This document shows, one piece after another, positions 5,775-40,242 of a DNA stretch of 64,000 nt. The position numbers and the translations under genes were made by a program. The DNA is from Clostridia bacterium (lineage in GTDB: Bacteria > Bacillota > Clostridia > Oscillospirales > CAG-272). Location: NCBI GenBank assembly GCA_017540175.1, contig JAFYBN010000008.1, positions 10,030 to 74,029 of the forward strand. The letters run 5' to 3'. The notes below the pieces were generated by a model. That model saw only the letters and a list, made by a program, of their open reading frames with translations, had not been told where the DNA came from and made no database searches. The first letter of the stretch is position 1. Each line of letters starts with the position of its first letter.

Positions 5775-5785
5775 AGAAGGCAGAA

Positions 5786-8233: not shown

Positions 8234-8297
8234 CGCCCGTTTTCCCCCGCGCCTCATTCCCGGTCAATAATCCTTCATCAAATATAAGGAGAATCTC

Positions 8298-9017
8298 ATG
8301 GACATCTACAAAACCTCTCCCATCGCATCCCTGCTCTCCGGCAACCCCTACCCGGGCCGCGGCATCATGATCGGCATGACGCCCGACGGAAAGAAAGCCG
8401 CGTTCGCCTATTTCATCATGGGCCGCAGCGAGAACAGCCGCAACCGCGTATTCGTCAAGGAAGGTCTTGATCTGAGAACCGCTCCTTACGACGCGTCGAA
8501 GGTGAAGGATCCCTCTCTCATCATCTACTACCCCGTCCGCGACCTCGGGAAGACCGTCGTCGTCACCAACGGCGACCAGACCGACACGATCCGCGACTTT
8601 CTGCTGAGCGGCTCGACCTTTGAAGCCGCGCTGGACACCCGGACCTTCGAGCCGGACGGCCCGAACTGGACGCCCCGCATTTCGGGCATCCTGTACCACG
8701 GCGCGGGCACGCTGCGCTACAAGCTGAACATTCTGAAATCCCTTGACGCGGAGGGTTCCGACTGCGTCCGCGAGACCTTCTCCTACACGGCTAAGCCGGG
8801 GCTCGGGCACTTTCTTCATACCTATGTGACGGACGGCAATCCCATTCCGACCTTCCAGGGCGAGCCGGAACGGATCGAGATCCCCGCCTGCGTCAACTGC
8901 CTGACGGAAGAGATCTGGTCGAACCTCGACGAAAACAACAAGATCTCCCTCTACGTCCGCACGACCGATCTCGAAACGGGCGAGATCAAGGAACGTCTCA
9001 TCAACAGATACGAATAA
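8298..9017 (+). CDS. purO: IMP cyclohydrolase, archaeal PurO type
   Basis: 239 aa. NPYPGRGIMIGMTPDGKKAAFAYFIMGRSENSRNR... matches my recollection of the PurO family. RBS AAGGAGA. Sits between purN and the AICARFT gene. Confidence 0.8.
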   Translation: MDIYKTSPIASLLSGNPYPGRGIMIGMTPDGKKAAFAYFIMGRSENSRNRVFVKEGLDLRTAPYDASKVKDPSLIIYYPVRDLGKTVVVTNGDQTDTIRDFLLSGSTFEAALDTRTFEPDGPNWTPRISGILYHGAGTLRYKLNILKSLDAEGSDCVRETFSYTAKPGLGHFLHTYVTDGNPIPTFQGEPERIEIPACVNCLTEEIWSNLDENNKISLYVRTTDLETGEIKERLINRYE

Positions 9018-9030
9018 ATCGGAGGATGAC

Positions 9031-10215: not shown

Positions 10216-10241
10216 GACCGATTGAGTCGGGAGACTGATTT

Positions 10242-11513: not shown

Positions 11514-14500
11514 ATGGTATACAGATGTTATGTGGAAAAACGCCCCGGACTGACCGTCGAAGCGGACGCGCTGAAGGATGAAATCAATTCCACCCTCGGC
11601 ATAATTTCTCTGACCGGTCTGCGCGTCGTGAACCGCTATGACGCGGAAGGCCTTGACGCGGAGCTGTTCGACTACGCGAAGCACACCGTTTTCTCGGAAC
11701 CTCAGGTCGATCTCGTGAGCGATACCCTCTCCGTGCCGGAAGGCGCGCGGGTTTTCGCCGTCGAATATCTGCCCGGTCAGTACGACCAACGGGCGGATTC
11801 CGCGGCGCAGTGCATCCAGATCATTTCCCGCGGAACGCGACCCGCCGTGCTTTCGGCAAAGGTCTATCTGCTCGAGGGAGACCTCACGCCGGATGAGCTC
11901 GACGCGATCAAGAAATACGTCATCAACCCGGTTGAAGCGCGGGAAGCGGATCTCGCGGAAAGAACCACGCTCGAGCGGCAATACGACGTTCCAGCGGATG
12001 TGGCGGTCCTCGACGGGTTCCGGGCGTTGAAGGACGAAGATCTCGCTCCCTTTATCGCAAAATGGGGCCTTGCGATGGACGAAGGCGATCTCGCGTTCAC
12101 ACGATCCTATTTCAGCGGGGAGATGAGGGATCCCACCCTCACGGAAATCCGCATGATCGACACCTATTGGTCCGATCACTGCCGCCACACGACCTTCCTC
12201 ACGACCATCGACAGCGCGCGCTTTGAGGATCCGCTGCTCGAGAGCTCCTATCAGCGTTATTTAAGCCTCCGGGGGAGGCTCGGCAGGGACAAAAAGCCGG
12301 TGACGCTCATGGACCTCGCTACCGTCGCGTGCCGCGCGCTCAAAGCGGACGGAAAGCTCCCGAAGCTCGATGAGAGCGAGGAGATCAACGCCTGCACGGT
12401 GAAGATCGACGTGGAGTTCGGCAAGAAAACCGAGAAATGGCTCCTGCTCTTCAAAAACGAAACGCACAACCACCCGACCGAGATCGAGCCCTTCGGCGGC
12501 GCGGCGACCTGCATCGGCGGCGCGATCCGCGACCCGCTCTCCGGGCGGAGCTATGTTTACGCCGCGATGCGCGTGACCGGCGCGGGCGACCCGACCGTTC
12601 CCATTTCGGACACCCTGCCGGGCAAGCTGCCGCAGAAGAAGCTCGTCACCACGGCGGCGGCGGGATATTCCTCCTACGGCAACCAGATCGGGCTTGCCAC
12701 CGGGCAGGTGAGCGAGCTCTACCATCCCGGCTACGTCGCCAAGCGCATGGAGATCGGCGCGGTGATCGCCGCCGCTCCCGAAAGCGCGATGCGGCGCGAA
12801 AGACCGTGCCCCGGCGATCTTGTGATCCTGCTCGGCGGGCGCACGGGACGGGACGGCTGCGGCGGCGCGACCGGCTCCTCGAAATCCCACACCCTCCACT
12901 CGCTCGAGACCTGCGGCGCGGAGGTCCAAAAGGGCAACGCGCCCGAGGAGAGAAAGCTCCAGCGGCTGTTCCGGAATCCTGCGGCTTCCCTGCTCATCAA
13001 GCGGTGCAACGACTTCGGCGCGGGCGGCGTGTCCGTCGCCATCGGCGAGCTTGCGGACGGACTGCTCATCGACCTCGACAAGGTCCCGAAGAAATACGAC
13101 GGGCTCGACGGCACGGAGCTTGCGATCTCCGAATCGCAGGAGCGCATGGCGGTCGTCGTGGCAAAGGAAGACGCAGAGCGCTTCTGCGCCCTTGCCGCGG
13201 CGGAAAACCTCGAGGCGACCGTCGTCGCGTCAGTGACCGATACGGACCGGCTCGTGATGACGTGGCGCGGAAAGACGATCGTCGATCTCTCCCGCGAATT
13301 CCTCGGCTCAAACGGCGCGGAGAAGCACATCGACGTCTCTCCCGAAGCGCCGAAGCCCTATGACAAGCCCACCCCGGACGATTTCACGGACGGCATGCTC
13401 TCGCTCGTCGGCGACCTCAACGTCGCGTCCCAGCGCGGGCTTGTCGAACGGTTTGACTCCACCATCGGCGCGGGCACGGTGCTCATGCCCTTCGGCGGCG
13501 AATACCAGCTCACCCCTGTTCAGGCGATGGCGCACCGCGTTTCCTCCGAGGACCGCGTCTCCTCCACCGTCTCGCTCATGGCGTGGGGCTACAACCCCAT
13601 GATCGCGGAAAAGAGCCCCTACCACGCCTCCTATCTCGCGGTCGTGGAATCGGTCTCGAAGCTCGTCGCGTCCGGCGCATCCTTCGAGGACGTGTACCTG
13701 ACCTTCCAGGAATACTTCGAGAAGCCCATGCGCGACGGAAAGCGCTGGGGCAAGCCGCTCGCCGCCCTGCTCGGCGCGCTCGACGCGCAGATGAGCCTCG
13801 GCGTCGCGTCCATCGGCGGCAAGGATTCCATGAGCGGGTCCTTCGAGAAGCTCGACGTGCCCCCGACTCTCGTTTCCTTCGCGGTCACGACGGATCGGAT
13901 CGAGCACGTGATCTCCCCCGAATTCAAGCAGGCGGGACACCGCGTCACCCTGCTCCTCCCCGAATACGACGAAAACGGTCTCCCGACGGCGGATTCCCTC
14001 ATCAAGAACTTCTCCCTCGTTCATGAGGGCATTGTCTCCGGCAACATCGAAGCCGCCTGGACCTGCGGGTACGGCGGCGCTGCGGAGGGCGTCTTCAAAA
14101 TGGCGCTGGGCAACCGGATCGGCTTTGCCGCCGCGGACAACGTGAAGCTCTCCGATCTCTTCGGCTACCGGTACGGCGCGTTCGTTCTCGAGTGCGCGGG
14201 CCGCGCGGTCGGCACGATGATCGGCGAGACGATCCCGGTGGAGTCCTTCGTGCTGAGAGGCGATTCCGTCTCTCTCGCACAGCTTGAGAAGGTCTATGAC
14301 GGCGTGCTCGAGGGCGTCTACCCCGTGAACGCGAAGAATCAGAACAACGAGGAAAAGCCCGAAACCGTGACGGCGAAGCCCGCTGTGCGCATCCACTCTC
14401 CCGAACGCTTCGCAAAGCCGCGCATCCTCATTCCGGTCTTCCCGGGCACGAACTGCGAGGTCGACACCGCGAAGGCGCTCTGCAACGCGGGCTTCGACGC

Positions 14501-16555: not shown

Positions 16556-18037
16556 TCAGTTTATGATCTTTTCGAAGTTCGCGAGCATCTTGTCGAGCAG
16601 CTTCACCGCGCTGCGCTGCTGCTTCTCGTAATATGAGCCCACGCCCGTACCGGAGGCCCCGAGATCGCCGAGGATGTTCTTGAACGGCAGATCGTAGGCA
16701 TAGGCAAACGAGGTCATGCGGGTATCGGCGATGATCTGGAGCATTTCGGCGTCGTCCGGGGAGTCCGCCATGCGCCGCTTCATCGAAACGTCGAAATAAA
16801 CGGGCAGGACGTGCTGATAGTTGTAGCAGGAAAGCGCTTCGCAGATCGTTCCGACGATGTCGGTCTGCTCGCCCGAGACGGTCGTGGGAATGCCCCACGG
16901 TCCGTCCGTACAGCAGTTCACATAGTCCTTCTGCGTCTCGTCGAGCTTCGGGCAGGGGAGGAAACCGTAGGTGAAATCAAAACTGCTGTAAATATCGTAC
17001 GCGTCGCCGATCTCGCCGAGGTTGACAAGGCTGTTTCCGGTCTGGAAGACGGCGCTGCCGAAGAAATCGCCCGCGTCGAGATAATCCTGCGTGCCCATGA
17101 GCTCGCGCATTTTGGCGACGTAGCGATCGGTGCGGTCGAGGTCAAGGCTGAGTTCGATCCGCCCCTCGGCGTTTCTGGAATAGGGGGTGACCCCGACGGA
17201 CTCCTGGAAGCAGTAATAGGTCTGGCTGCCCGTGACGAATCCGATCCGGTCGCTCGCGTCGATCTTTCCGTTGCCGTCAAGATCGCTCGCCACGTCCCGG
17301 ACGTAGGCAAGCATCGCGTCCAGCGTCCAGGTCCCCTCGCGCACGGCGTCGTAGGGAACGCCGATCATGAGTTCGCCCGCGATATCCTTATTCACCATGA
17401 GCGCCCGCGTCCAATGGATGCCGAGATAGGAAAGGTAGCTCGACATGGCGTAGAGCGAATCGTTGATCGTGAGGGTATCGAGCATAATGGGCGGCCACCA
17501 CGGCTTCGAAAAATCAAACTGGCCGACGGACTTCATGTCGAGCAGATACCCCTTCGGCGCAAACGCGTAGGTGATATAGTCCGGCGCGACCATGACGTCG
17601 AAGGCGTCGTCCGCGGTCTTGATGGATTTCATGAAGGTATTCGAGTCGTTGCCGTAGAGATCGTAGGACAGCTTCACGTTGAAGCGCTGCTCGATGTAGA
17701 GCGTCGAATCGCGCAGGGCGTCCTTCACGGGCGTGCCGGTGTAGTCGTCCATGGAGATGACGTATTCCGCCATCGGGACGCCGTTGCCCTGACCGCAGGC
17801 GATGCGGAAGCCGTATCCCCCGAAATCGGTGTCGGGCAGGCCGTCCGTAAGAAGGGTCTCTTCCGGTTCGGTCTCTTCTTCCTCAGGCGTCGGGGACGCG
17901 CTCGAAACAGGCTCGGCGGCCGGTTCGGCTTCGGCGGACGGGGCGTCCTTGTTTGTCTCGCTCTCGCCGCAGGAAACAAGGAGCGGCAGCATGAGAAGAG
18001 CGGCGAGGAGGAAACAAAGGATTTTCTTCGTTTTCAT
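16556..18037 (-). CDS. extracellular solute-binding lipoprotein (ABC sugar-binding family-like), orphan
   Basis: 493 aa. Signal peptide plus lipobox LVSC-G, an acidic linker, then SBP-like sequence. No permease or ATPase genes are adjacent. Confidence 0.7.
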   Translation of the reverse strand: MKTKKILCFLLAALLMLPLLVSCGESETNKDAPSAEAEPAAEPVSSASPTPEEEETEPEETLLTDGLPDTDFGGYGFRIACGQGNGVPMAEYVISMDDYTGTPVKDALRDSTLYIEQRFNVKLSYDLYGNDSNTFMKSIKTADDAFDVMVAPDYITYAFAPKGYLLDMKSVGQFDFSKPWWPPIMLDTLTINDSLYAMSSYLSYLGIHWTRALMVNKDIAGELMIGVPYDAVREGTWTLDAMLAYVRDVASDLDGNGKIDASDRIGFVTGSQTYYCFQESVGVTPYSRNAEGRIELSLDLDRTDRYVAKMRELMGTQDYLDAGDFFGSAVFQTGNSLVNLGEIGDAYDIYSSFDFTYGFLPCPKLDETQKDYVNCCTDGPWGIPTTVSGEQTDIVGTICEALSCYNYQHVLPVYFDVSMKRRMADSPDDAEMLQIIADTRMTSFAYAYDLPFKNILGDLGASGTGVGSYYEKQQRSAVKLLDKMLANFEKIIN

Positions 18038-18202: not shown

Positions 18203-18255
18203 GAAAAGAAAACCGCCGCCCGATCCGGTGTGAAAACCAAACGGCGCGGCGGTTC
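18203..18255 (-). terminator. putative intrinsic terminator after the 71-aa gene / frd operon
   Basis: On the minus strand: AACCGCCGC...GCGGCGGUU (9 bp, large loop) followed by UUCUUUUC. Confidence 0.45.
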
Positions 18256-18279: not shown

Positions 18280-18495
18280 TCATTTTCTGCGCCTCTTGTT
18301 GATGGCGCCGATCATGCCGAGCAGAACGAGCACGACCGCGGAGGCGGCGACAACGATGAGAATGGTCGGAAGCGTGTCTCCCGTGAAGGGCGCGAGCGCC
18401 TGACCGGCGTTCGGATAAGGGAGCTTCTCCGGCAAAGCGAGCCCGGAAATCGCCAGCATCAGCCGGCTGAGGAGGACGGTCATCATGTATTTCAC
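18280..18495 (-). CDS. 71-aa secreted peptide with C-terminal sorting-signal-like tail
   Basis: GTG start behind GGAGAA (9-nt spacing). N-terminal signal peptide MKYMMTVLLSRLMLAISGLA. C-terminus reads APFTG-DT, then a 21-aa hydrophobic stretch, then KRRRK. Codons are GC3-rich. Confidence 0.5.
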   Translation of the reverse strand: MKYMMTVLLSRLMLAISGLALPEKLPYPNAGQALAPFTGDTLPTILIVVAASAVVLVLLGMIGAINKRRRK

Positions 18496-18577: not shown

Positions 18578-20200
18578 TTAAAAATATTTTTTCTGAAACA
18601 GCGGATTTCCGTGGGAATACACCGGCAGGAGCTTGGGCGAGGGCGTTTCGTTCTCGATCCCCGCTGCCGTGCGCTCTTTTTCCCATTCCTCGAGGCGGCA
18701 CAGGGAAAGACTTTCGGCTTTCGTGACCGATTTCGCTTTTTCGGAAGCGTGCTTCCCCGCGCTGCGGCCGAAGACGATGACGTCGAGCAGGGAGTTTCCC
18801 ATCAGGCGGTTGCGGCCGTGGATGCCGCCGACGACCTCGCCCGCCGCGTACAGGTTTTCCACCGCCGTCATGCCGTCGGGGGTGATGTCCAGTCCGCCGT
18901 TCTGGTAGTGGAGCGTCGGATAGACGAGGATCGGCTCCTTTCGGATGTCGATGCCGTATTTCTCGAACATGCGGTGCATCGCGGGGATGCGGGCAAGGAT
19001 CGTTCCCTCCCCGCCGAGCATTTCGATCATCGGAGTGTCGAGCCAGACGCCGCAGCCGCTCGCGGTCTTCACGCCCTTTTGCCGGTCGGAGCATTCGCGG
19101 ATGATCGCCGCCGCGGCGACGTCGCGGGTCTCAAGCGGGTGCATGAAGACTTCGCCTTCCGCGTTCACGAGTTTCGCGCCGAGGGAGCGGACTTTTTCCG
19201 TGACGAGCGCGCCGAAGATCTGTTCGGGATACGCCGCGCCGGTCGGATGGTACTGCAGGGTATCCGCGTAGAGCAGCTTCGCGCCGACGCGGTAGCCGAG
19301 CGCAAGCCCATCGGCGGTCGCGCCGTAATGGTTCGAGGTCGGGAAGCCCTGATAGTGCATCCGTCCCGCGCCGCCCGTGGCGAGGATCACCGTTTTCGCG
19401 CGCGCGACGGTCAGCTCTCCGGTCTCCATGTTCATGAGCACGGCGCCCGCGCACTTCCCTTCTGTGTCCGTCAGAAGCTCGACCGCCGCGGTGAAATCGA
19501 CGATCGCGATGTTCCGGTTCAGGGCTTCGTCCCGGAGGGTGCGCATGATCTCCGCGCCGGTATAGTCCCGCGCAGCGTGCATCCTCTTGCGCGAGGTGCC
19601 GCCGCCGTGGGTCGTGATCATCGTGCCGTCCGGCGCCTTGTCAAATTCCACGCCAAGCTTGTTCAGCCAGAGAATGGCGTCCGGAGCCTCGGAGACGAGC
19701 TTGACGAGCAGCTCGGGCTTCGCGGCGAAGTGTCCGCCGCCGAACGCGTCGAGATAGTGGATCGCCGGGCTGTCGTTCGGCTTGTCCGCCGCCTGAATGC
19801 CGCCCTCCGCCATCATGGTGTTGGCGTCGCCGACGCGCAGCTTGGTGACGACGAGCACGCGCTCGCCGTTTTGCTCCGCTTCGAGCGCCGCCGAGATCCC
19901 CGCGCCGCCGCCCCCGATGATGAGGACGTCGCAGTCGTGATCGATCCGGGTGAGGTCGACGTCCGCCGGCGTGATCCGCGGACGGCCCTCGAGGACCGCC
20001 GCGAGCTCGTGCGGAACGGGATCGCCCCGGTTCGCGCCGATTTTCAGCGCTTCAAATTCTTCTTTTTTATAGTCCGGGTGGTACGCGACGAGGAGGGCGT
20101 CCTTTTCCTCCGCCGTCATTCTCTTCGGCTCGAAAAGGAGATTGGCCTCGCGCGCCGCCTCCACCTTTTTTACGGACTCAAGCATATCAAACTGTGCCAT
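18578..20200 (-). CDS. soluble fumarate reductase/succinate dehydrogenase-type FAD flavoprotein (FrdA-like) with ~100-aa N-terminal extension
   Basis: VLIIGGGGAGISAAL dinucleotide fold, LQYHPTG, TEKVR, TLHYQNGG and HGRNRLMGNSLLD match the SdhA/FrdA active-site blocks. AEGG is preceded by DANTMM rather than the SHT His, so no covalent-FAD histidine. Start trimmed to ATG 20200 (MAQFDML) behind GGGAGAG. Confidence 0.8.
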   Translation of the reverse strand: MAQFDMLESVKKVEAAREANLLFEPKRMTAEEKDALLVAYHPDYKKEEFEALKIGANRGDPVPHELAAVLEGRPRITPADVDLTRIDHDCDVLIIGGGGAGISAALEAEQNGERVLVVTKLRVGDANTMMAEGGIQAADKPNDSPAIHYLDAFGGGHFAAKPELLVKLVSEAPDAILWLNKLGVEFDKAPDGTMITTHGGGTSRKRMHAARDYTGAEIMRTLRDEALNRNIAIVDFTAAVELLTDTEGKCAGAVLMNMETGELTVARAKTVILATGGAGRMHYQGFPTSNHYGATADGLALGYRVGAKLLYADTLQYHPTGAAYPEQIFGALVTEKVRSLGAKLVNAEGEVFMHPLETRDVAAAAIIRECSDRQKGVKTASGCGVWLDTPMIEMLGGEGTILARIPAMHRMFEKYGIDIRKEPILVYPTLHYQNGGLDITPDGMTAVENLYAAGEVVGGIHGRNRLMGNSLLDVIVFGRSAGKHASEKAKSVTKAESLSLCRLEEWEKERTAAGIENETPSPKLLPVYSHGNPLFQKKYF

Positions 20201-20214
20201 ACCGCTCTCCCTTC

Positions 20215-20901
20215 TCACGCCTCGATCTCACGGTTGTTGTAAAGCTCTTTCAGTTCGTCGAGCGGCTTTTCGGTCAGAGCCTCAAGCAGCTCGGAGAACG
20301 TGCCGTTTTCGATTTCGCGCACCCGGTCTTCCAGATGTGCCGACGCGGGCGCGAGGTATTTGCCGTTGATGCGGCGCGCGAGCTGGGCGACCTGCGGGTG
20401 GGAGATCCCCGCCGGGCACCGGGACGAGCAGACCCCGCACATCACGCAGTCGAAGGACTCCTCCGCGCAGCGCGCGAAATCCCCTCTCTGGGCGTAGGCG
20501 ATGTACTGCATCACCTTCAGCCCCTGCGTGCAGGATTTCGTGCAGGCGTTGCATCCGATGCAGGCGTAGATTTCGGGATAGAGCTGCATCATCACCGCCT
20601 CGCCGGGGGTGATTTTTTCGATGTCGTAAACCTGCTTGACGAGCGGGAAGAACGGCAGGGTCGCGATGTACATGTCGTTCTCAACTTTCGTCTGGCAGGC
20701 GAGGCAGACCTTCAGCTCCCTGTCCCCCTTGATGCGGTAGATGGTCGCGCACGCGCCGCAGAAGCCGTTGCGGCAGCCGCATCCGCGGACGAGCTGATAG
20801 CCCGCGTATTCCATCGCGCCCATGATCGTGAGGCTTTCGGGCACGGCGTAGCGTTTCCCGAACAAATAGATATTGACTGTGTTTTCCATGTCGCTTTTCA
20901 T
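20215..20901 (-). CDS. FrdB/SdhB-like iron-sulfur subunit ([2Fe-2S] plus two Cx2Cx2Cx3C clusters)
   Basis: The C-x4-C-x2-C-x14-C motif (GCRNGFCGACAT...VCLAC), CIGCNACTKSC and CVMCGVCSSRCP are present. Start is ATG 20901 or 20889; the track start 20979 is over-extended. Confidence 0.78.
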   Translation of the reverse strand: MKSDMENTVNIYLFGKRYAVPESLTIMGAMEYAGYQLVRGCGCRNGFCGACATIYRIKGDRELKVCLACQTKVENDMYIATLPFFPLVKQVYDIEKITPGEAVMMQLYPEIYACIGCNACTKSCTQGLKVMQYIAYAQRGDFARCAEESFDCVMCGVCSSRCPAGISHPQVAQLARRINGKYLAPASAHLEDRVREIENGTFSELLEALTEKPLDELKELYNNREIEA

Positions 20902-20905
20902 CCTC

Positions 20906-21727
20906 TCAATACTCGTCCGGAAGCTCGCCGAGCTCGTCGAAGCGGAAGACCGGGCCGTCCTTGCAGACGTATTTCGCACCGATGTTGCACCGCCCGCATT
21001 TGCCGACGCCGCATTTCATTCTGAGCTCCATCGTCGTGTAGATCTGTTCCGGGCGGAAGCCAAGCTCCGTCAGACCCTGAACCGTGAACTTGATCATGAT
21101 CGGCGGTCCGCAGACCAGCGCGACGCTGTCGAGCGAGGGAGAGAGTTCCTTGACGTAGTTCGGCACGAAACCGACGTGCCCGTCCCAGGCGTCCTCAGCG
21201 CGGTCGATGGTGAGGTGCACGTTCATGTCGCGCGTCCACTCGGTCGTGATCTCGTCGTAATCCACGAGATCCGCCTTCGAGCGCGCGCCATAGATGATTT
21301 CCACGTTTCCGTAATTCTCACGTTTCGCGCGGACATAGCGGATGACCGAGCGCAGGGGCGCGAGCCCAATGCCGCCCGCGATGAAGAGCAGGTTTTTGTG
21401 AAGCAGCTCATCGTCGACGGGGAACGGACGCCCGTACGGTCCGCGCACGGTGACCTCCATGCCGGGCTCGAGCATGTGAAGCCATTCGGTGAGGTGTCCG
21501 CATTTCTTGATGGAGAATTCAAGCCATTCGAGGTCCGTGGGGGAGCTCGTCACGGAAAACATCGCCTCGCCGATCCCCGGCAGGGACACCATGGCGCACT
21601 GGCCCGGGAGGTGCTCGAAGGGCTTCTTTCCGTCCCGCGATACGACGCGGAAGGTTTTGACGTCCGGGGTGTCCGTGCGGATCTCCGTGACCGTACAGAT
21701 TGCCGGGAGCATGGTTTCAGGATTCAT
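20906..21727 (-). CDS. FAD/NAD(P)-binding oxidoreductase with C-terminal [2Fe-2S] (FlxA / AsrB / HydG-gamma-like)
   Basis: 273 aa with a ferredoxin-reductase fold (…LLFIAGGIGLAPLRS…) and C-terminal CGVGKCGRCNIG. RBS GGAGGA. Overlaps the upstream gene by 11 nt. Confidence 0.85.
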   Translation of the reverse strand: MNPETMLPAICTVTEIRTDTPDVKTFRVVSRDGKKPFEHLPGQCAMVSLPGIGEAMFSVTSSPTDLEWLEFSIKKCGHLTEWLHMLEPGMEVTVRGPYGRPFPVDDELLHKNLLFIAGGIGLAPLRSVIRYVRAKRENYGNVEIIYGARSKADLVDYDEITTEWTRDMNVHLTIDRAEDAWDGHVGFVPNYVKELSPSLDSVALVCGPPIMIKFTVQGLTELGFRPEQIYTTMELRMKCGVGKCGRCNIGAKYVCKDGPVFRFDELGELPDEY

Positions 21728-22748
21728 TTCCGTCCTCCGCTAAAGTCTTCAGCACCTTGACGATGTTCATGCCGATGGGGCAGGCGCGCAGACAGCGTCC
21801 GCATCCCACACAGCCGAACTCGCCGCCGTTGTTTTCGGGGAAATACACGAGCTTGTGCATGAACCGCTGGCGGAAGCGCTCCTTCTGCGTCAGGCGCGGA
21901 TTGCCGCCCGCCATTTTGGTGAAATCGGAATACATGCAGCTGTCCCAGCACCGGAACCGCCTGACCTCGCGCCCCGTGTCAAAATCGCGGATGTCGTAAC
22001 ACTGGCAGGTCGGGCAGACGAAGGTGCAGGTGCCGCAGCCGATGCAGCTCTCCGAGAGGGAGCTCCATTCGGGACGGTCGAAGAGATCCTTGGTTTTGCC
22101 CCCGCCGAATTTCTCGAGCGGGAGGGTGCCGAGGGGAAGACGGTCCGCGATCCGCTTCGTCTGTGCGCGGGCCTCTTTCTCGCCCGCCTCATCCGCTTCG
22201 TCAAAGACGCCGGAGAGGGACTCGAGGAACGCCTCGCCCTTTTCGGAGTTCGCGCGGACGTAATACCCTTCACCGTCGTCCGTGAAGGTCACGTCTCCCT
22301 CGGGAGCGGACGGGTCGATGCCGAACGCCGTGCAGAAGCAGGTTTCGGCTGGCCGGCGGCAGGAGACCGATAAAACCAGTCCGTGCGCGCGGCGGTTTGC
22401 GTAATAGGTATCGGCAGGGTCGGAGAGGAAGACCTTGTCGAGGATCGAAAAGCTGCGCGCGTCGCAGGCGCGGACGCCGAATACGGCGAAGTCCTCGGTT
22501 TCGCGGCGCGGGTCGACGATCTCGAGCTTCTTCTCCGTTCTGCGGAAGCCGACGAGATTTTCCGTCTGCGGGAAGAAGAAATCCTTCGCCGAACGGGTTG
22601 TATTCAGCGCCTTCGATACGACGGTCCCGGGCATCCAGAGGCGGTACGCGGCGCGGTTTTGTTCCCCGTCGACGGGCACATAGATTTTTCTCAGCTTTGC
22701 CGCATCTTCAAGGAAGCGGTCGAGCCGGGCGGTGGGCAGATATTTCAT
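21717..22748 (-). CDS. 4Fe-4S polyferredoxin-type subunit (FlxB / AsrA / HydB-beta-like)
   Basis: 343 aa. CIGCGTCTFVCPTCQC and CVGCGRCLRACP clusters, AsrA-like N-terminal region. TAATG junction with the upstream gene. Confidence 0.8.
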   Translation of the reverse strand: MKYLPTARLDRFLEDAAKLRKIYVPVDGEQNRAAYRLWMPGTVVSKALNTTRSAKDFFFPQTENLVGFRRTEKKLEIVDPRRETEDFAVFGVRACDARSFSILDKVFLSDPADTYYANRRAHGLVLSVSCRRPAETCFCTAFGIDPSAPEGDVTFTDDGEGYYVRANSEKGEAFLESLSGVFDEADEAGEKEARAQTKRIADRLPLGTLPLEKFGGGKTKDLFDRPEWSSLSESCIGCGTCTFVCPTCQCYDIRDFDTGREVRRFRCWDSCMYSDFTKMAGGNPRLTQKERFRQRFMHKLVYFPENNGGEFGCVGCGRCLRACPIGMNIVKVLKTLAEDGNES

Positions 22749-23728
22749 TATGCGCGCCCCCTTTCGTTCACGACCGACGGTTCGACGTCGCCCTCGGTGT
22801 AGGAGACGAGCGGATTCTTTCCGTCCTCGCTCTCTCCCGCCCGGTACGCGCCGTAGAGCTCGTCGATATCCTTGATGAATTTACGGTTCAGAAGATGCAG
22901 CGGGATGTGCTCGGGGCAGACGCGGGAGCACTCGCCGCAGTCGGTACAGCGTCCCGCGACGTGGAACGCGCGGATGATGTGGTACATGTTTTCCTCAAAC
23001 GGGTCCGCCGCCGCCTTCTGGGAGATGCCCGAGGCGGGATTGTCGAACACGCAGTTCTCGCAGGAGCACGCGGGACATACGTTCCGGCACGCGTTGCACC
23101 GGACGCACCGCGACAGCTCGCCGCGCCAGAACTCGAAGCGTTCCTCCGGCGTCATAGCCTCGAGCCGCGCCACTTCGGTAAAACGCACGTCGTCCGGGAC
23201 GTCCTCGCCCTCCTCGCCGATCAGCTCGTCACAGGAAGCGTGCCGCTTCGATTTGCACGAGAGACACCGCTCGGCGAGCGCTTCCTTCACGGAAACCCTC
23301 TCGTCTCCGTAAAGGGTATGGACGAGGAAGTCCTCTCCCTCGTGCTCGATGCCGAGAATGCCGTCGATGCCGCGCGCACGGATCCTGTCGGCGTCCGCCA
23401 TGCCCTCGCAGGGGATGCCGACGGCGTACACGTTTTCCTTCGCGATCCGGTGCTCTTTGAGCAGTTCGCCATACGAATAGGAGTCGCAGGGCTTGAGGAA
23501 GACGAGGATCTTCCCTTTCCCGGGCTTTGACGCTTCCTGAATCAGATATTTCGAAAGGTTCGCCCCGCAGAAACCGTCGAACACGAAATCGCGCTCGAGC
23601 TCTTCGGCGGATTCAAATACCGCGGGGGTGATATCGTAGGAGAATTCGCCCTTTTTCCAGCCGAGCACGCGGGTGACAACTCCGTCCCCGAGCAGCTCGC
23701 GGGCGCGGGCTTTCAGTCTTTCCTGCAT
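22748..23728 (-). CDS. 4Fe-4S dicluster protein (FlxC-like; FrhB/AsrA-related)
   Basis: CVRCNACRNVCPACSC and CTDCGECSRVCP motifs. Start trimmed to ATG 23728 (MQERLKAR) behind GGAGGA. Overlaps the mvhD stop. Confidence 0.72.
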   Translation of the reverse strand: MQERLKARARELLGDGVVTRVLGWKKGEFSYDITPAVFESAEELERDFVFDGFCGANLSKYLIQEASKPGKGKILVFLKPCDSYSYGELLKEHRIAKENVYAVGIPCEGMADADRIRARGIDGILGIEHEGEDFLVHTLYGDERVSVKEALAERCLSCKSKRHASCDELIGEEGEDVPDDVRFTEVARLEAMTPEERFEFWRGELSRCVRCNACRNVCPACSCENCVFDNPASGISQKAAADPFEENMYHIIRAFHVAGRCTDCGECSRVCPEHIPLHLLNRKFIKDIDELYGAYRAGESEDGKNPLVSYTEGDVEPSVVNERGRA

Positions 23729-24153
23729 CTTAAATCCTCCAGTCTCCGGTTCGGACCGAGCGCTGTGACATCCTTCACGAAGGAGCGCATGGTCTCGGCG
23801 AATTTCTGGCCTTCCGCCGCGGAAACCCATTCCACGCGCGTGCGCGCTCTCTCAATGCCGAGATAATCGAGCATCGAGAAGAGGAGCGTCATGCGGCGGC
23901 GGGTGTAGTAGTTTCCTGTCGTGTAATGGCAGTCCCCCGGATGGCAGCCGCAGATGATCACGCCGTCCGCGCCGCGCTGGAACGCGCGGAGGATGAAGGT
24001 CGGGTTGACCCTGCAGGAGCACGGCACGCGGATGATCTTCACGTTCGCGGGATAGGGCAGCCGGTTGGTGCCGGACAGATCGGCGCCCGCGTAGGAGCAC
24101 CAGTTGCAGCAGAACGCAACGATCGTCGGCACAAATTCTTCGTTTACCTGCAT
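23713..24153 (-). CDS. mvhD: MvhD/FlxD-like [2Fe-2S] electron-transfer protein
   Basis: IVAFCCNWCSYAGADLSG...IIRVPCSCRVNP...GADGVIICGCHPGDCHY is the MvhD (methyl-viologen-reducing hydrogenase delta) signature. Start trimmed to ATG 24153 behind GGAGGTG. Overlaps the hdrA stop by 10 nt. Confidence 0.88.
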   Translation of the reverse strand: MQVNEEFVPTIVAFCCNWCSYAGADLSGTNRLPYPANVKIIRVPCSCRVNPTFILRAFQRGADGVIICGCHPGDCHYTTGNYYTRRRMTLLFSMLDYLGIERARTRVEWVSAAEGQKFAETMRSFVKDVTALGPNRRLEDLRCRKD

Positions 24154-26135
24154 ATCGCGTCCACCTCCGCCATGATCTGGGAATTCGAGAAGCCGGAGAG
24201 GTCCATCGCGCCGGACGGGCACGCGACCGTGCACGCGCCGCAGCCCTGACAGACCGCGGGATTGACCGACGCCACGCGCCGCACCTTCGTCGTGCGGTCG
24301 GGCATGCGGAACTCTTTGTCAAGATAGGTGATCGCCCCGTAGGGACACACGTTCGCGCAGGAGGAGCATCCGTTGCACATCAGCTCGTCGGAATGCGCCA
24401 CGCAGGGATTTCCGGTCAGCTTGTTCTTCGAGAGCAGTCCGATGACCTTCGCCGCGCAGGCTCCCGCCTGGGAGACCGTTTCGGGAATGTCCTTCGGTCC
24501 CTGGCACACGCCGGAGAGGAAGATCCCTGCGGTCGGAGACTCTACGGGGCGGAGCTTCGGATGCGCCTCCGTGAAGAAGTCGTTCGTGTCCATCGACGCC
24601 GTGAGCATCGTGGCGAGCTTGCGCGCGGTCTTCGACGGCTCGATCGCAGCGGCGAGCACGACGAGATCGGCGGAGATGCGGAGCTGCTCGTCCATGATGA
24701 GGTCCGCCGCCTGCACGTCGAGCGTTCCGTCCGCGCGGGGGACGATCTTGCCGACCGCGCCCTTGATGTAGTGGACGCCAAATTCCTCGGCGGCGCGGCG
24801 GTAGAACTCGTCGAAGTTCTTGCCGGGCGTTCTCACGTCGATGTAGAAGACGTAGACCTCGGTGTCGGGGTATTTCTCGCGGGTGAGCATCGCGTGCTTC
24901 GCCGTGTACATGCAGCAGATCTTCGAGCAGTAGGGCTTGCCTTTCTCCAGCACGCACCGCGAGCCGACACACTGGATGAAGACGATGGTATGCGGGTGTT
25001 TGCCGTCGGAGGGACGCAGCAGGACCCCGCCGGTCGGTCCCGCGGCGTTCGTCAGCCGCTCGAACTCGAGGGAGGTGATCACGTCCTTCGATTCCGTATA
25101 AGCGTACTCGCCGTACCGGGTCACGTCCGAAATCTCGTAGCCCGTCGCGGCGACGATCGCGCCGTAATGCTCTTCGACGATCTCGTCCGTCTGCTTGTAG
25201 TTGATCGCTCCCGCCTCGCAGACGCGGGAGCAGAGCCCGCATTTGCCGTTTTTCAGCATATTGCACCGGTCGGGGTCGATGACGGCGATCTTCGGGATCG
25301 CCTGCGCGAAGGGGATGTAGACCGCGCGCCGGTTGTCGAAGCCTAAATTGAATTCGTTCGGCACGTTTTTCACCGGGCATTTCTCGGTGCAGAGCCCGCA
25401 GCCCGTGCATTTGACCTCGTCGACATACCGCGCCTTTTTGCGGATCTTCACGGTAAAGCTGCCGACGAAGCCGGAGACGGATTCGACCTCGCTGTAGGAG
25501 AAGATGCGGATATTCTCGTTCTGTGCGCATTCCACCATCTTCGGGGTGAGGATGCACGCGGAGCAGTCGAGCGTCGGGAAGGTCTTGTCGATCTGCGCCA
25601 TCTTGCCGCCGATGGTGGGCTTCTGTTCGACGATGTCCACGGGGAAGCCCGCCTCCGCAATGTCCAGCGCGGTCTGAATGCCCGCGATGCCGCCGCCGAT
25701 GACGAGCGCGCGCTTGGTCACGGGGCTTTCCCCCGCGATGAGCGGCGCGTTGAGCAGCGCCTTCGCGATGGCGGCGCGTCCGAGGATGATCGCTTTTTCC
25801 GTCGCCTCCGCCTTGTCCTTGTGGATCCACGAGCACTGCTCGCGGATGTTCGCGACCTCAACTAGATAGGGATTCAGCCCCGCGGACGCCGCCGCGCGGC
25901 GGAAGGTGACCTCGTGCATGCGCGGCGAGCAGGAGCAGATCACGACTCCGGTCAGCTCATGCTCGCGGATCGCGTCCTTGATGAGGTTCTGCCCGGATTC
26001 CGAGCACATATAGGGGTAGTCCGCCGCAAAGACCACGGAGGGTTCCTTCGCGAGCGCGTCCACGACTGCCTTCACATCCACGGTCGCCGCGATGTTCGTG
26101 CCGCAGTGGCAGACAAATACGCCGATTTTCTGCAT
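24144..26135 (-). CDS. hdrA: heterodisulfide reductase subunit A-like bifurcating flavoprotein
   Basis: 663 aa. N-terminal Cys-rich domain (VFVCHCGTNIA), FAD fold ALVIGGGIAGIQTALD, inserted ferredoxin CTGCGLCTEKCP and C-terminal CNGCSSCANVCP/CQGCGACTVACP. Confidence 0.9.
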   Translation of the reverse strand: MQKIGVFVCHCGTNIAATVDVKAVVDALAKEPSVVFAADYPYMCSESGQNLIKDAIREHELTGVVICSCSPRMHEVTFRRAAASAGLNPYLVEVANIREQCSWIHKDKAEATEKAIILGRAAIAKALLNAPLIAGESPVTKRALVIGGGIAGIQTALDIAEAGFPVDIVEQKPTIGGKMAQIDKTFPTLDCSACILTPKMVECAQNENIRIFSYSEVESVSGFVGSFTVKIRKKARYVDEVKCTGCGLCTEKCPVKNVPNEFNLGFDNRRAVYIPFAQAIPKIAVIDPDRCNMLKNGKCGLCSRVCEAGAINYKQTDEIVEEHYGAIVAATGYEISDVTRYGEYAYTESKDVITSLEFERLTNAAGPTGGVLLRPSDGKHPHTIVFIQCVGSRCVLEKGKPYCSKICCMYTAKHAMLTREKYPDTEVYVFYIDVRTPGKNFDEFYRRAAEEFGVHYIKGAVGKIVPRADGTLDVQAADLIMDEQLRISADLVVLAAAIEPSKTARKLATMLTASMDTNDFFTEAHPKLRPVESPTAGIFLSGVCQGPKDIPETVSQAGACAAKVIGLLSKNKLTGNPCVAHSDELMCNGCSSCANVCPYGAITYLDKEFRMPDRTTKVRRVASVNPAVCQGCGACTVACPSGAMDLSGFSNSQIMAEVDAICR

Positions 26136-26151
26136 TCGCTTCTTCCCCCTC

Positions 26152-26538
26152 TCACTTTGTGTATTTCCGCATGGCGGTCACGATCGCCTGCTGCGGAAGG
26201 TCTTTGTCCCAGAGCCCGGGAATGTCGTCGGGCTTCAGGCGGTTCATGCCCTGCTCGCGGATGACAATGAGGCGCACCGCCTCCACGACCTTCGCCGGTT
26301 CGACCCCGCGTGGACAGCGCTCCACGCAGGCGAAGCAGGTCAGGCATTTATAGATGGACTCCGACGCCATGAGCTTTTCGATATCTCCCTTTTCCACGAG
26401 ATAGACGAACTCATGGGGGTGGTACTCCATGTCCTCATACGAGGGGCAGCTCGCCGAGCATTTGCCGCAGCGCATGCATTTCTCGACGGCGGACCCGCTC
26501 ATGCGGACGATTTCTTCTTTCAGATCCTGTTTGTTCAA
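26152..26538 (-). CDS. hdrC: heterodisulfide reductase subunit C-like (2x[4Fe-4S])
   Basis: CMRCGKCSASCP and CLTCFACVERCP motifs. TTG start overlaps the hdrB stop (TTGA) and follows GGGGGAG. Confidence 0.85.
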   Translation of the reverse strand: MNKQDLKEEIVRMSGSAVEKCMRCGKCSASCPSYEDMEYHPHEFVYLVEKGDIEKLMASESIYKCLTCFACVERCPRGVEPAKVVEAVRLIVIREQGMNRLKPDDIPGLWDKDLPQQAIVTAMRKYTK

Positions 26539-27352
26539 GCGTTTTCTCCCCCTTCCTTCAAGCCGAGGGCTTCGGCGAGCACGTCCGTGAAATACCGGAT
26601 CTCAAGCGGACCCGCCGCGTTTTTCGTCAGATTATAGAGGCAGAGCGGACAGGCGGTGATCATGCAGTCCGCGCCCATCTCGACCGCCGAGCTGAGCACG
26701 GCGGCGCTTCTCTTCTTCGCCGCGTCCCGGTCCTCGAGCGTGAGGTACCCGCCGCAGCATTCGTTCCGCATGGCGTAGCGGACGGGCTCGGCTCCGAGCG
26801 CGCGGATGAAGTCCTCCATCACGGTGGGGTTCTCCGGCGAATCGAAGGCGAGCGTCTCTGACGGTCGGAGCAGCAGGCAGCCGTAATACGGGGCGATCTT
26901 TCGACCTTTGAGCGGCTTTTTGACCGCCGCGCGAAGCTTGTCGAAGCCGATCTCGTCCCTGAGCAGCTCGAACCAGTGCACGACCTCTGCTTCCCCGCGG
27001 TACGGCGGATCGGTCTTTTCATACCGGGAAACCTTCGCGGCAAACTCCGAATCGGTGCGGAATGCCGCGTTCGTCTGCTTCAATACGTTATAGCACGCGG
27101 AGCAGACCGTCACGACCCGGCCGCCGTGATCCCTTGCCCACGTCAGGGCGCGGGCGGCGGCGAGCTTGGTCGCGATCTCGTCGCGCGATGTGGTGAACGC
27201 CCCGCCGCAGCACTGCCATTCGTCGATCTCCTCGAATTCATAGCCGAGGAGGCGGGCGGCGGCCCTTGCCTCTTCGTCGAGGGCGCGCGCCTTGTTTTTC
27301 AGCGTACAGCCGGGGTAATAAGCAATTTTCGTCATAATCGGTTCCTTTTCGG

Positions 27353-27356
<4 letters not shown>
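26535..27356 (-). CDS. hdrB: heterodisulfide reductase subunit B-like (two CCG domains)
   Basis: YYPGCTL...CCGG and a second ...YYGC...CCGG repeat. Start is ATG 27356 (ATGA overlap with the fumC stop) or ATG 27335 (MTKIAYYPGC behind AAGGAA). Confidence 0.85.
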
Positions 27357-28729
<1,373 letters not shown>

Positions 28730-28750
28730 AACCTTGTCTTCCCTTCTCTC

Positions 28751-29695
28751 TCAAATTGTGAGTCCGCTGATAACTTCCCTGAGGCTGTCCGCGCTTTTTC
28801 TGAGAAGCGCGTTTTCCTCGTCGGTGAGCGCGGGGAGCAGCTTGCCGCGCAGCCCGTCGCGCCCGATGATGTTGAGGGTCGAAAGACAGACGTCCTGCAC
28901 GCCGTACTCCCCGTGCATGAGGGAGGAGACGGTCAGCGTGGTATCCATGCCCTCCACAAGGCATTTGCAGATGTGACAGGTGGACAGGGCGATCGCGTAA
29001 TAGGTCGCGCCCTTGCGCTGGATGACCCGCCCGCCGGATTTTTTGATGTAGGTCTCGATTTCCTCGTGGTTGATCGGGGGATAGATGTTGTCCTGACTGG
29101 ACACGGCGAGGTGGTACTGATCCACCTGGACGTTTGAGATGTTGGCGATGGACCACGGCACGAACGAGGTGTCCCCGTGCTCGCCGAAGACGTAGGCGTG
29201 CACGTTCTGCTGGTTGATGCTGTAATACTCCGAAATGCGGGCGCGGAGGCGGGAGGTATCGAGGATCGTGCCCGTTCCGATGATCTTGCTCTCCGGCAGA
29301 TCGGAGGTCTTGAGGAAGACGTAGGTGAGGATGTCGACCGGGTTCGAGACGATGATGTAGGTCGCGTCCGGCGCGTAGGTCGTGATCTGCGGGACGATGG
29401 ATTTCACGATGTCCACGTTCGTCTGCGCGAGATCGAGGCGGGACTGACCGGGCTTGCGGGCGATGCCGGACGTGAGGATCACGATGTCGGAGTCGCACGC
29501 GTCGCGGTAGGTCCCGGCGTAGATCGAAAGCGGGGCGCAGAACGGCGTCCCCTGCCGGATGTCGAGCGCTTCTCCGAGCGCTTTCTCCCCGTTGATGTCG
29601 ATCATGACTATTTCGGAAGCGATTCCCTGAACCGCAAGGGTGTAGGCGATGGTGGAGCCGACCGATCCTGCTCCGATGATGGTGATTTTTGTCAT
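28751..29695 (-). CDS. mdh: LDH-family 2-hydroxyacid dehydrogenase, predicted malate dehydrogenase
   Basis: KITIIGAGSVGST Rossmann fold. Substrate loop SGIARKPGQSRLDL carries Arg where L-LDHs carry Gln (position 102), as in LDH-like MDHs. RBS GGAGGT. Confidence 0.8.
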   Translation of the reverse strand: MTKITIIGAGSVGSTIAYTLAVQGIASEIVMIDINGEKALGEALDIRQGTPFCAPLSIYAGTYRDACDSDIVILTSGIARKPGQSRLDLAQTNVDIVKSIVPQITTYAPDATYIIVSNPVDILTYVFLKTSDLPESKIIGTGTILDTSRLRARISEYYSINQQNVHAYVFGEHGDTSFVPWSIANISNVQVDQYHLAVSSQDNIYPPINHEEIETYIKKSGGRVIQRKGATYYAIALSTCHICKCLVEGMDTTLTVSSLMHGEYGVQDVCLSTLNIIGRDGLRGKLLPALTDEENALLRKSADSLREVISGLTI

Positions 29696-29767
29696 GCAAT
29701 ACCTCCGATTGGGTCCGCCGCGCAGCGCTTTTCGGACGGCGTGCGCCGGATTCGTACATATATTTTT

Positions 29768-29796
29768 ATTATAGCAAAAGAAATGCGCTTTTTCAA
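29768..29796 (-). promoter_or_regulatory. sigma-A promoter of the mdh-fumC-hdr-flx-frd operon
   Basis: On the minus strand: TTGAAA, 17-nt spacer, TATAAT, about 70 nt upstream of the mdh ATG. Confidence 0.6.
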
Positions 29797-40127: not shown

Positions 40128-40130
40128 CAC

Positions 40131-40203: not shown

Positions 40204-40242
40204 GTACAGCGGAGAACCGGGGTTCTCTTTGCGTGCTCGTAT

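Follow-up and report, generated by a model that had tools for sequence, protein, structure and literature searches.

A 64,000-nucleotide stretch of DNA from a Clostridia bacterium (assembly GCA_017540175.1, contig JAFYBN010000008.1; this whole stretch is called the window below) carries at 18578-29796 a tightly packed eleven-gene operon encoding a malate dehydrogenase-type enzyme, a fumarase, a seven-subunit Flx-Hdr electron-transfer module and a pair of proteins (FrdA-like and FrdB-like) resembling soluble fumarate reductase. We lean toward the view that the operon carries out NADH-dependent, ferredoxin-reducing (bifurcating) fumarate reduction, and thereby closes the branch leading from oxaloacetate to succinate. 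Whether the eleven proteins also form or feed one soluble Flx-Hdr-Frd supercomplex seems to us evenly balanced; such an assembly would be a new class of bifurcating enzyme, with NADH as the donor, fumarate and ferredoxin as the acceptors, and the HdrB CCG clusters serving as a relay to FrdAB rather than as a disulfide reductase. What is observed comprises the identities of the genes, their cofactor motifs, the residues of the active site and the synteny; that fumarate pulls bifurcation from NADH to ferredoxin we infer from thermodynamics and from which genes are present.

Organization of the operon

Eleven open reading frames (ORFs) occupy 18578-29695 on the minus strand, and their junctions are overlaps or gaps of no more than 21 nt. 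Coordinates and starts were taken from the ORF list together with public gene calls on contigs encoding identical proteins. In order of transcription, the features are:

29768-29796, minus strand: sigma-70-like promoter, TTGAAA-17-TATAAT with a TG extension on its 5' side, ~70 nt before the first ATG; identified by 11 of 12 consensus matches only
28751-29695, minus strand: ldh-type gene, first of the operon, 314 aa
27353-28729, minus strand: fumC, 458 aa, 21-nt gap after the ldh-type gene
26535-27356, minus strand: hdrB, 273 aa, ATG at 27356, ATGA overlap with the fumC stop
26152-26538, minus strand: hdrC, 128 aa, TTG start, TTGA overlap with hdrB
24144-26135, minus strand: hdrA, 663 aa, 16-nt gap after hdrC
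23713-24153, minus strand: mvhD/flxD, 146 aa, 10-nt overlap with hdrA
22748-23728, minus strand: flxC, 326 aa, 16-nt overlap with mvhD/flxD
21717-22748, minus strand: flxB, 343 aa, TAATG, 1-nt overlap with flxC
20906-21727, minus strand: flxA, 273 aa, 11-nt overlap with flxB
20215-20901 (or from 20889), minus strand: frdB-like gene, 224-228 aa, 4- or 16-nt gap after flxA
18578-20200, minus strand: frdA-like gene, 540 aa, 14-nt gap after the frdB-like gene

The original prediction, made from the DNA letters and an ORF list, had described one promoter followed by eleven minus-strand genes in this order, joined by 0-21-nt gaps or overlaps. The ORF coordinates and public gene calls bear this out, and its subunit identities are upheld by Pfam and NCBIfam, with qualifications for the first gene, FlxC and the FrdB-like protein. 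The first ATG is preceded by a GGAGG. A promoter scan returned 4 sites as compared to 2.3 ± 1.5 in shuffled sequences, a statistically weak result overall; the promoter at 29768-29796 is credible because of its position and quality, not because of the scan count. Two starts can be placed differently: a public gene call begins hdrC at the ATG at 26502, and starting the frdB-like gene at 20889 yields 224 aa, the length of most orthologues. No membrane-anchor gene is present in the eleven-gene operon. A promoter-like site within frdA (19617-19644, minus strand; TTGACA-16-GATGAT, no TG, 10 of 12 matches) has probably arisen by chance.

The Flx-Hdr module

Domain identities were assigned using hidden Markov model (HMM) searches of Pfam and NCBIfam. 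All seven Flx-Hdr subunit types (FlxA, FlxB, FlxC, FlxD/MvhD, HdrA, HdrB and HdrC) are encoded contiguously. HdrA, the site of bifurcation in the mechanism proposed below, is full length, with an N-terminal CxCG cluster, an FAD domain, and both inserted and C-terminal ferredoxin domains. It matches the NCBIfam HdrA2 model over residues 3-661 (795 bits) and aligns end to end with a structurally solved bifurcating HdrA (PDB 5odc_A, 693 bits). The [2Fe-2S] subunit MvhD/FlxD is recognized by Pfam FlpD (1.8e-54) and corresponds to the MvhD portion at the C-terminal end of the fused HdrA2 model, and HdrC carries two CxxCxxCxxxC (4Fe-4S) motifs. HdrB matches Pfam CCG in two stretches, with complete motifs of the forms C-x31-CC-x34-CxxC and C-x39-CC-x34-CxxC; it scores 150.7 bits against the SdhE model (methylmenaquinol:fumarate reductase/type-E) and 150.2 bits against the HdrB model TIGR03288, both under the cut-off.

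On the Flx side, FlxA contains FAD_binding_6, NAD_binding_1 and DHODB_Fe-S_bind domains (Pfam), is AsrB/HydG-like (AsrB, 6.6e-60), and is predicted to be the entry point for NADH. FlxB is AsrA/sulfhydrogenase-beta-like, with matches to Pfam Fer4_22 (1.4e-31), ShyB (1e-54) and AsrA (1.6e-40). FlxC has two 4Fe-4S motifs and generic dicluster Pfam matches only. Its similarity to FlxB/AsrA is confined to the dicluster region (23% identity, E 4e-6), by which it can be classed as a distant paralogue of FlxB within that region.

The FrdA-like flavoprotein

The last gene of the operon encodes a protein that matches Pfam FAD_binding_2 (1.5e-73), with a GxGxxG dinucleotide motif and a capping domain. 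It gave no match to Succ_DH_flav_C, the Pfam model of the C-terminal helical domain, and it has a conserved extra N-terminal extension of ~90 residues. Its best curated model is TfrA (350 bits, cut-off 718), followed by SdhA/FrdA at 291 bits and NadB at 288, and it remains under every curated cut-off, including that of TIGR01812 (291 bits vs 567). Some databases name its homologues L-aspartate oxidase, an assignment we reject on the scores and the gene context.

The residues expected of a fumarate enzyme are retained. Across relatives as distant as 40% identity (alignment A1), with motifs aligned to M. smegmatis SdhA, the segments QYH318PTG, T-E335-x2-R338, R359-D360, H431-Y-x-x-G-G and N-R465-L-x-G-N are invariant. 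We take H318, R359, H431, R465 and the E335 region to be the counterparts of H232, R287, H355, R390 and T244/E245 in E. coli FrdA. The histidine that binds FAD covalently in SdhA ('AHT'/'SHT') aligns with an invariant asparagine, Asn127 ('ANT'), in the FrdA-like protein; soluble fumarate reductases and NadB likewise lack this histidine. Loss of the covalent-FAD histidine favors fumarate reduction over succinate oxidation, and its replacement by Asn127 thus argues for operation in the reductive direction.

An AlphaFold2 (AF2) model of the flavoprotein, N-terminal extension included, reached a predicted local distance difference test score (pLDDT) of 87.8 and a predicted template modeling score (pTM) of 0.89. 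When this model was searched against the Protein Data Bank (PDB) with Foldseek, the best match was E. coli FrdA (1kf6_A, E 3.9e-33, TM 0.69), and SdhA, flavocytochrome c3 and NadB gave further fold matches (E ~1e-33 to 1e-28, TM 0.6-0.7). The fumarate-type assignment that had been made for this flavoprotein is thus upheld by the fumarate-binding and catalytic residues, the FrdA-like fold and TfrA as the best model. With Asn127, no C-terminal domain and the N-terminal extension, the protein classifies by its sequence as a FrdA/TfrA-like flavoprotein of a putatively distinct clade. The extension and the FrdB-like partner are both kept in more distant relatives, in which the electron-input module is changed; the extension therefore tracks the FrdB-like partner and not Hdr.

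The FrdB-like iron-sulfur partner

The FrdB-like protein has a [2Fe-2S]-type cysteine cluster (C37, C39, C44, C47, C62 and C65) followed by two CxxCxxCxxxC(P) motifs, and every one of these cysteines is invariant across 22 orthologues. The pattern fits one [2Fe-2S] and two [4Fe-4S] clusters; no 3Fe-type motif is present, unlike SdhB/FrdB with their [3Fe-4S] cluster. Pfam matches are to Fer2_4, Fer2 and dicluster models. Similarity to characterized partners is low, with a weak match to TfrB model positions 17-148 (E 2e-8), 27.6 bits against TIGR00384 (dhsB, cut-off 88), and E 3.6e-4 against SdhB in the PDB, where the best match is the RnfC dicluster. Searching the PDB with a profile built from the FrdB-like sequences did not strengthen the link to SdhB, the RnfC dicluster domain again being best. 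In architecture the protein appears to resemble SdhB or the N-terminus of TfrB, but in divergent form. The TfrB model is tiled by three proteins of the operon, namely FrdB-like (17-148), HdrC (124-219) and HdrB (368-466), so that HdrC, HdrB, FrdB-like and FrdA-like together look like TfrAB split into separate genes.

The malate dehydrogenase-type enzyme and fumarase

The product of the first gene contains Pfam Ldh_1_N and Ldh_1_C and exceeds the curated L-lactate dehydrogenase (LDH) cut-offs of NCBIfam (PRK00066, 342.5 vs 339; TIGR01771, 323.6 vs 303.6). Its substrate loop, GIARKPGQSR, places an arginine at the specificity position 102. Lactate dehydrogenases have glutamine at this position, and exchanging Gln102 for Arg is the classic way of converting an LDH to a malate dehydrogenase (MDH); Wilks and colleagues are said to have described it in 1988. 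The MDH-type Arg102 is found in 46 of the 47 operon-linked orthologues, in agreement with the LDH-type malate dehydrogenase of the original prediction. We predict from this residue that the gene encodes an NAD-malate dehydrogenase of the LDH clade, and reject the name L-lactate dehydrogenase, to which the HMM cut-offs alone point, on Arg102. The exception (locus L005, ~234-1200) has in the first operon position an LDH-family non-orthologue of 40% identity with Gln, apparently a true LDH-type protein and not an MDH-type orthologue.

The second gene is identified by its matches as a class II fumarate hydratase: it scores 686.4 bits against TIGR00979 (cut-off 664.75), and both the Lyase_1 and FumaraseC_C domains are present. 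Aspartase was considered for fumC and rejected, as the aspartase models stayed under their cut-offs and the gene context also spoke against it.

Conservation of the gene neighborhood

Close homologues of the FrdA-like protein (75-82% identity) number in the thousands and occur in Clostridia metagenome-assembled genomes (MAGs), in [Clostridium] leptum and in Solibaculum mannosilyticum; these two species and Yeguia hominis are cultured carriers. [Clostridium] leptum has the complete eleven-gene cluster in the same order. In a scan with one genome per species, at least 594 genomes encode a relative of the FrdA-like protein. The best 80 relatives (71-78% identity) are nearly all labeled as gut or rumen Clostridia, with a few MAGs bearing other taxon labels, and include Yeguia hominis and MAGs assigned to Ruminococcus flavefaciens.

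Synteny was counted by tblastn of the eleven proteins in 55 species-level loci with at least 9.6 kb of upstream sequence. The nine genes from hdrB to frdA are colinear in 54 of these loci, the same block with fumC in 51, and all eleven genes in 45. The frdAB-flx-hdr-fumC-mdh neighborhood, whose conservation the original prediction left to be checked, is thus strongly conserved across species. The one locus of the 55 that departs from the hdrB-to-frdA order belongs to a Congzhengia sp. MAG (L077), in which a CitMHS-family transporter, frdB, frdA and a small membrane protein occupy 8055-11943 and both hdr and flx genes are absent within 10 kb.

In 78 loci the sequence extends far enough downstream to classify the gene that follows frdA. 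A transporter of the Asp-Al_Ex/AspT-YidE-YbjL (AAEx) type lies directly after frdA in 49 of them (for example L031 11634-12890; PF06826, 1.3e-58), a hydrophobic protein of ~100 aa with no Pfam or NCBIfam family in 17, and neither of the two in 12. The AAEx family includes the Corynebacterium succinate exporter SucE1. Given this family membership, the AAEx gene is likely to be a succinate exporter that completes the operon, and the presence of either gene after frdA is consistent with dicarboxylate export. In the window, neither an AAEx transporter nor a ~100-aa membrane protein follows frdA. Examples of the ~100-aa protein are found in L001 (11657-11947) and L077 (11596-11943), with the sequence FGLSWPIS...RTAKGKSLFF.

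More distant relatives of the pair occur in other settings. On a Logan contig (SRR24270839; L083, 811-9771), a 56%-identical flavoprotein belongs to a korD-korA-korB-korG-hdrA-mvhD-hdrC-hdrB-frdB-frdA cluster, where the kor genes encode a 2-oxoacid:ferredoxin oxidoreductase and no flx genes are present on the contig. In GCA_018697835.1 (L084/L085, 9366-12891), a genome that also has genes for cytochrome c and DsrE-like proteins, a NuoF-like gene (Complex1_51K, NADH_4Fe-4S) comes after a frdB-frdA pair of 47% identity, and this may represent a simpler soluble fumarate reductase linked to NADH. A 45%-identical relative (P0133) consists of frdA-frdB alone. The contigs of three further relatives whose flavoproteins are shorter or more distant (P0130, P0157 and P0167) were too short for informative gene context.

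Relation to known systems

The operon type and the idea of a bifurcating fumarate reductase have already been published and are biochemically unproven, which takes away the novelty that the original prediction implied. In Pseudoclostridium (Clostridium) thermosuccinogenes, a 'succinate operon' joins the gene of a fumarate hydratase to seven genes for Flx-Hdr and two for a fumarate reductase, plus one for a hypothetical protein, potentially a succinic acid transporter (PMC7282089). Its genes are co-regulated, as seen by RNA-seq, and rise ~four-fold under CO2 limitation, and H2 abolishes succinate formation (PMC7282089, BMC Microbiol 2020). The same bifurcation hypothesis is put forward there, citing a preprint (Koendjbiharie & van Kranenburg 2019, 10.20944/preprints201912.0288.v1). 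By its published description, that operon matches ours in fumarase, seven Flx-Hdr genes, two fumarate reductase genes and proposed function. It begins with the fumarase and ends with the hypothetical protein, whereas the window has the MDH-type gene first and no downstream membrane protein; the ~100-aa membrane protein of the relatives may correspond to this hypothetical protein.

A second precedent comes from tubeworm symbionts and Thioflavicoccus, where tfrAB and korABCD are interleaved with flxABCD-hdrABC in reductive tricarboxylic acid (rTCA) clusters and a Flx-Hdr complex was proposed to feed fumarate reductase as well as 2-oxoglutarate:ferredoxin oxidoreductase (OGOR) (PMC6315080, mSphere 2019). 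In Endoriftia, the flx-hdr, kor and other rTCA cluster genes are co-expressed (PMC11636981, Nat Microbiol 2024), and a 2026 survey still terms the bifurcation proposal a suggestion (PMC13147460). Ca. Endoriftia persephone and Thioflavicoccus mobilis share with the window an AB-type soluble fumarate reductase clustered with Flx-Hdr, for which bifurcation from NADH to fumarate and ferredoxin was proposed. They are autotrophic Gammaproteobacteria using the rTCA cycle, with OGOR interleaved, whereas here a fermentative gut Clostridium has fumC and mdh and no OGOR. The kor-hdr-frd cluster of L083 is reminiscent of the Endoriftia rTCA cluster.

FlxABCD-HdrABC of Desulfovibrio vulgaris (Ramos et al. 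2015, via PMC7282089 and PMC6315080) likewise has seven contiguous subunit types, with an NAD(P)H-binding FlxA and an MvhD-like FlxD. There DsrC is the proposed acceptor, whereas here dsrC is lacking and a FrdAB-like pair is co-operonic; the gene order also differs, being hdrBCA-flxDCBA here and flxABCD-hdrABC in D. vulgaris. The methanogen MvhAGD-HdrABC and Fdh-Hdr complexes (PDB 5odc, 7bkb and 8rvu) have HdrA proteins homologous end to end to that of the operon (603-693 bits), and share with it HdrB, HdrC and MvhD. Their donor is a hydrogenase or formate dehydrogenase and their acceptor CoM-S-S-CoB, in place of Flx (NADH) and, presumably, fumarate via FrdAB.

On the fumarate reductase side, Methanothermobacter TfrAB (Heim et al. 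1998, via PMC6315080) supplies the flavoprotein's best curated model in TfrA. TfrA retains the C-terminal domain that the FrdA-like protein is missing, the donor is CoM-SH plus CoB-SH, and TfrB fuses Fe-S and CCG parts that here sit on three separate proteins. In the type-E succinate:quinone reductases and the methylmenaquinol:fumarate reductase SdhABE, a CCG-domain protein also partners an SdhAB/FrdAB-type enzyme, but these are membrane-associated and quinone-linked, unlike the system in the window. The five-subunit NADH-dependent fumarate reductase of Hydrogenobacter thermophilus is soluble, quinone-independent and irreversible, and adds electron-input subunits to an A/B pair (Miura et al. 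2008, via PMC13147460). In Aquifex these additional subunits go by other annotations (aq_116, nox, dmsB2), the genes of the enzyme are dispersed, and no bifurcation has been reported for the enzyme, unlike what is proposed here. In Bcd-EtfAB and the caffeyl-CoA reductase CarCDE, bifurcation is driven by NADH, and reduction of an enoate-type C=C bond (E0' ~0 mV) pulls the reduction of ferredoxin. They belong to unrelated families (Etf, acyl-CoA dehydrogenase), act on CoA esters, and are functional analogues only.

The original prediction had known of no characterized complex of such composition, and literature searches found none either. As a whole, its interpretation stands on the residues, the fold, the synteny and Arg102, and gives way on novelty; it is reasonable, has survived every available test, and is partly supported. 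What is added here is the breadth and rigidity of the synteny, seen in at least 54 species-level genomes from Oscillospirales-type Clostridia of gut and rumen, the usual presence in the operon of an MDH-type dehydrogenase whose position 102 has changed naturally from Gln to Arg, an AAEx-type putative dicarboxylate exporter that usually closes the operon, and a definition of the features of the flavoprotein clade.

Proposed mechanism and alternatives

The operon would constitute a reductive C4 branch, running from oxaloacetate through malate and fumarate to succinate, in which MDH and fumarase would supply fumarate to a cytoplasmic, quinone-independent fumarate reductase fed by FlxABCD-HdrABC. 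FlxA, with its FAD and [2Fe-2S] cluster, would oxidize NADH, and the electrons would travel via FlxB, FlxC and FlxD (MvhD) to the bifurcating FAD of HdrA. From there, one electron would go uphill through the HdrA ferredoxin domains to ferredoxin, while the other would go downhill, entering the [4Fe-4S] and [2Fe-2S] clusters of the FrdB-like protein by way of HdrC and perhaps also of the CCG clusters in HdrB, and finally reaching the non-covalent FAD of the FrdA-like subunit to reduce fumarate. The overall reaction would be 2 NADH + Fd(ox) + fumarate -> 2 NAD+ + Fd(red) + succinate. Complex formation, this electron path, the bifurcation itself and ferredoxin as the second acceptor are what we infer. 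Ferredoxin potentials lie at ~-420 to -500 mV. Those of fumarate and NAD (E0') are +33 mV and -320 mV (PMC5861303). By our own arithmetic from these potentials, the overall reaction would yield ~-33 to -49 kJ/mol. Rnf or a hydrogenase could run on the reduced ferredoxin, and the outcome would in effect be a quinone-free fumarate respiration.

Several observations count against this proposal. In characterized Hdr enzymes, the CCG clusters are the disulfide-reducing site and not a wire. The FrdB-like protein is weakly related to SdhB/TfrB, and its AF2 model, made with a 22-sequence alignment, was unusable (pLDDT 50.6). The ldh-type protein falls under the MDH cut-offs (PRK06223, 267.5 vs 283; TIGR01763, 202 vs 352), and the exporter gene carried by most relatives is missing from the window. 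FrdAB-like pairs also occur with no hdr or flx genes nearby (L077, P0133) or with a NuoF-like partner (L084/L085), so that the pair is not strictly dependent on Hdr. Among the cluster genes in the Endoriftia transcriptome, tfrAB stood apart from the shared expression pattern (PMC11636981). Literature searches found no biochemical or structural demonstration of a Frd-Hdr-Flx complex or of fumarate-dependent ferredoxin reduction, and no bacterial Flx-Hdr-Frd structure was found in the PDB.

Two other arrangements would retain fumarate as the substrate. In one, two separate enzymes would be joined by a thiol shuttle: Flx-Hdr would split NADH electrons between ferredoxin and a soluble disulfide (a DsrC-like protein or a low-molecular-weight disulfide) that is reduced at the CCG domains of HdrB, and the thiols would be re-oxidized with fumarate, as in methanogen Tfr. 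The completeness of both HdrB CCG motifs, a known disulfide-reducing site, fits this arrangement, as do the closeness of the flavoprotein to TfrA and the role of DsrC as proposed acceptor of the Desulfovibrio Flx-Hdr; a route through reduced ferredoxin and a DsrC-like protein has been offered for Endoriftia as an alternative to direct transfer (PMC11636981). The FrdB-like protein, however, has no CCG domain, which is the thiol-oxidizing site of TfrB, leaving HdrB as the only CCG protein of the operon, and no dsrC, DsrC-like or thiol-carrier gene was found in the operon or its conserved neighborhood. We consider a thiol shuttle unlikely, and would say much the same of a non-bifurcating soluble NADH:fumarate reductase, in which Flx and Hdr would just conduct electrons to FrdAB and no ferredoxin would be reduced, with an outcome analogous to that of the Hydrogenobacter enzyme. 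Soluble multi-subunit NADH-dependent fumarate reductases do exist (PMC13147460), a distant FrdAB-like pair adjoins a simple NuoF-like NADH module, and electron transfer from NADH to fumarate is strongly exergonic by itself. Against it, mere downhill transfer makes it hard to rationalize why seven extra Fe-S/flavin subunits are kept in at least 54 species. HdrA, moreover, has its full length, keeps both ferredoxin domains and is highly similar to bifurcating HdrA; the loss of succinate formation under H2 in P. thermosuccinogenes also fits coupling to ferredoxin (PMC7282089).

The remaining alternatives concern the substrate and the direction. If the flavoprotein acted on L-aspartate, as NadB does, or on another enoate, fumC and mdh would be no more than its metabolic neighborhood. 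That the scores against the curated SdhA/FrdA, TfrA and NadB models all stay under the cut-offs, that the C-terminal domain is missing and the N-terminal extension novel, and that the name L-aspartate oxidase is in use for homologues all leave room for such a substrate. Both carboxylate-binding His/Arg pairs and the proton-donor Arg are nevertheless invariant, the Fe-S partner is always present, unlike in NadB, neither nadA nor nadC is nearby, and the gene is co-operonic with fumarase, the MDH-type gene and, in relatives, dicarboxylate-type transporters; we judge a non-fumarate substrate to be very improbable. Least probable of all, with hardly any weight in our estimate, is reverse operation, in which confurcation with reduced ferredoxin would drive the oxidation of succinate (and malate) and yield NADH. 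Bifurcating enzymes of the Hdr and Etf types can in principle run either way, but by our own arithmetic this direction would be endergonic and not feasible, as the mean donor potential (succinate +33 mV, ferredoxin ~-450 mV) lies above the -320 mV of NAD. The covalent-FAD histidine needed for efficient succinate oxidation is also missing, and P. thermosuccinogenes, the one physiologically studied organism reported to have this operon type, produces succinate (PMC7282089).

If the bifurcating supercomplex is real, it would, together with Rnf or a hydrogenase, allow a form of fumarate respiration in hundreds of species of quinone-free Clostridia from gut and rumen, among them MAGs assigned to the succinate producer Ruminococcus flavefaciens. 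Once proven, the enzyme would be the first demonstrated bifurcating fumarate reductase and would provide the first clear physiological acceptor for a bacterial Flx-Hdr outside the sulfate reducers. It would also explain energy conservation in succinate-forming Clostridia that possibly have no quinone-linked fumarate reductase.

Other features of the window

A small ORF and a terminator-like hairpin lie beyond frdA:

18280-18495, minus strand: 71-aa ORF, between frdA and the first terminator-like hairpin
18214-18246, minus strand: terminator-like hairpin with a T-run, the first one 3' of frdA

No terminator was found between frdA and the 71-aa ORF, and as none precedes the hairpin at 18246-18214, the transcript may carry this ORF as a twelfth. 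It also has its own promoter-like site (TTGCAA-17-TATAAT, 18559-18531). The encoded protein resembles a signal peptide at its N-terminus and ends in a KRRRK tail; with an APFTG motif and a hydrophobic segment as well, it looks like a minimal sortase-type sorting signal, and it has no family match in Pfam or NCBIfam. It was rejected as a conserved twelfth subunit, as tblastn gave no significant matches in 82 loci, and is probably functionally outside the system.

The rest of the window holds housekeeping genes only (purine synthesis, cell wall, ribosomal proteins, asparagine synthase), with no other TCA, Rnf or OGOR genes among them. A perfect TTGACA-17-TATAAT (18101-18073) precedes the gene of a 493-aa protein (16556-18037, minus strand) whose signal is of the lipoprotein type (LLVSCGES) and which matches nothing in Pfam or NCBIfam. 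At 5785-5877 on the plus strand, 5' of a run of plus-strand ORFs, lies a ZMP/ZTP riboswitch (RF01750, 57.5 bits, above the gathering score), and a few kb 3' of it on the same strand is a purine-biosynthesis block (IMP cyclohydrolase, AICARFT, GARS and FGAM synthase). A single tRNA-Arg (ACG) gene is located at 40130-40204 on the minus strand.

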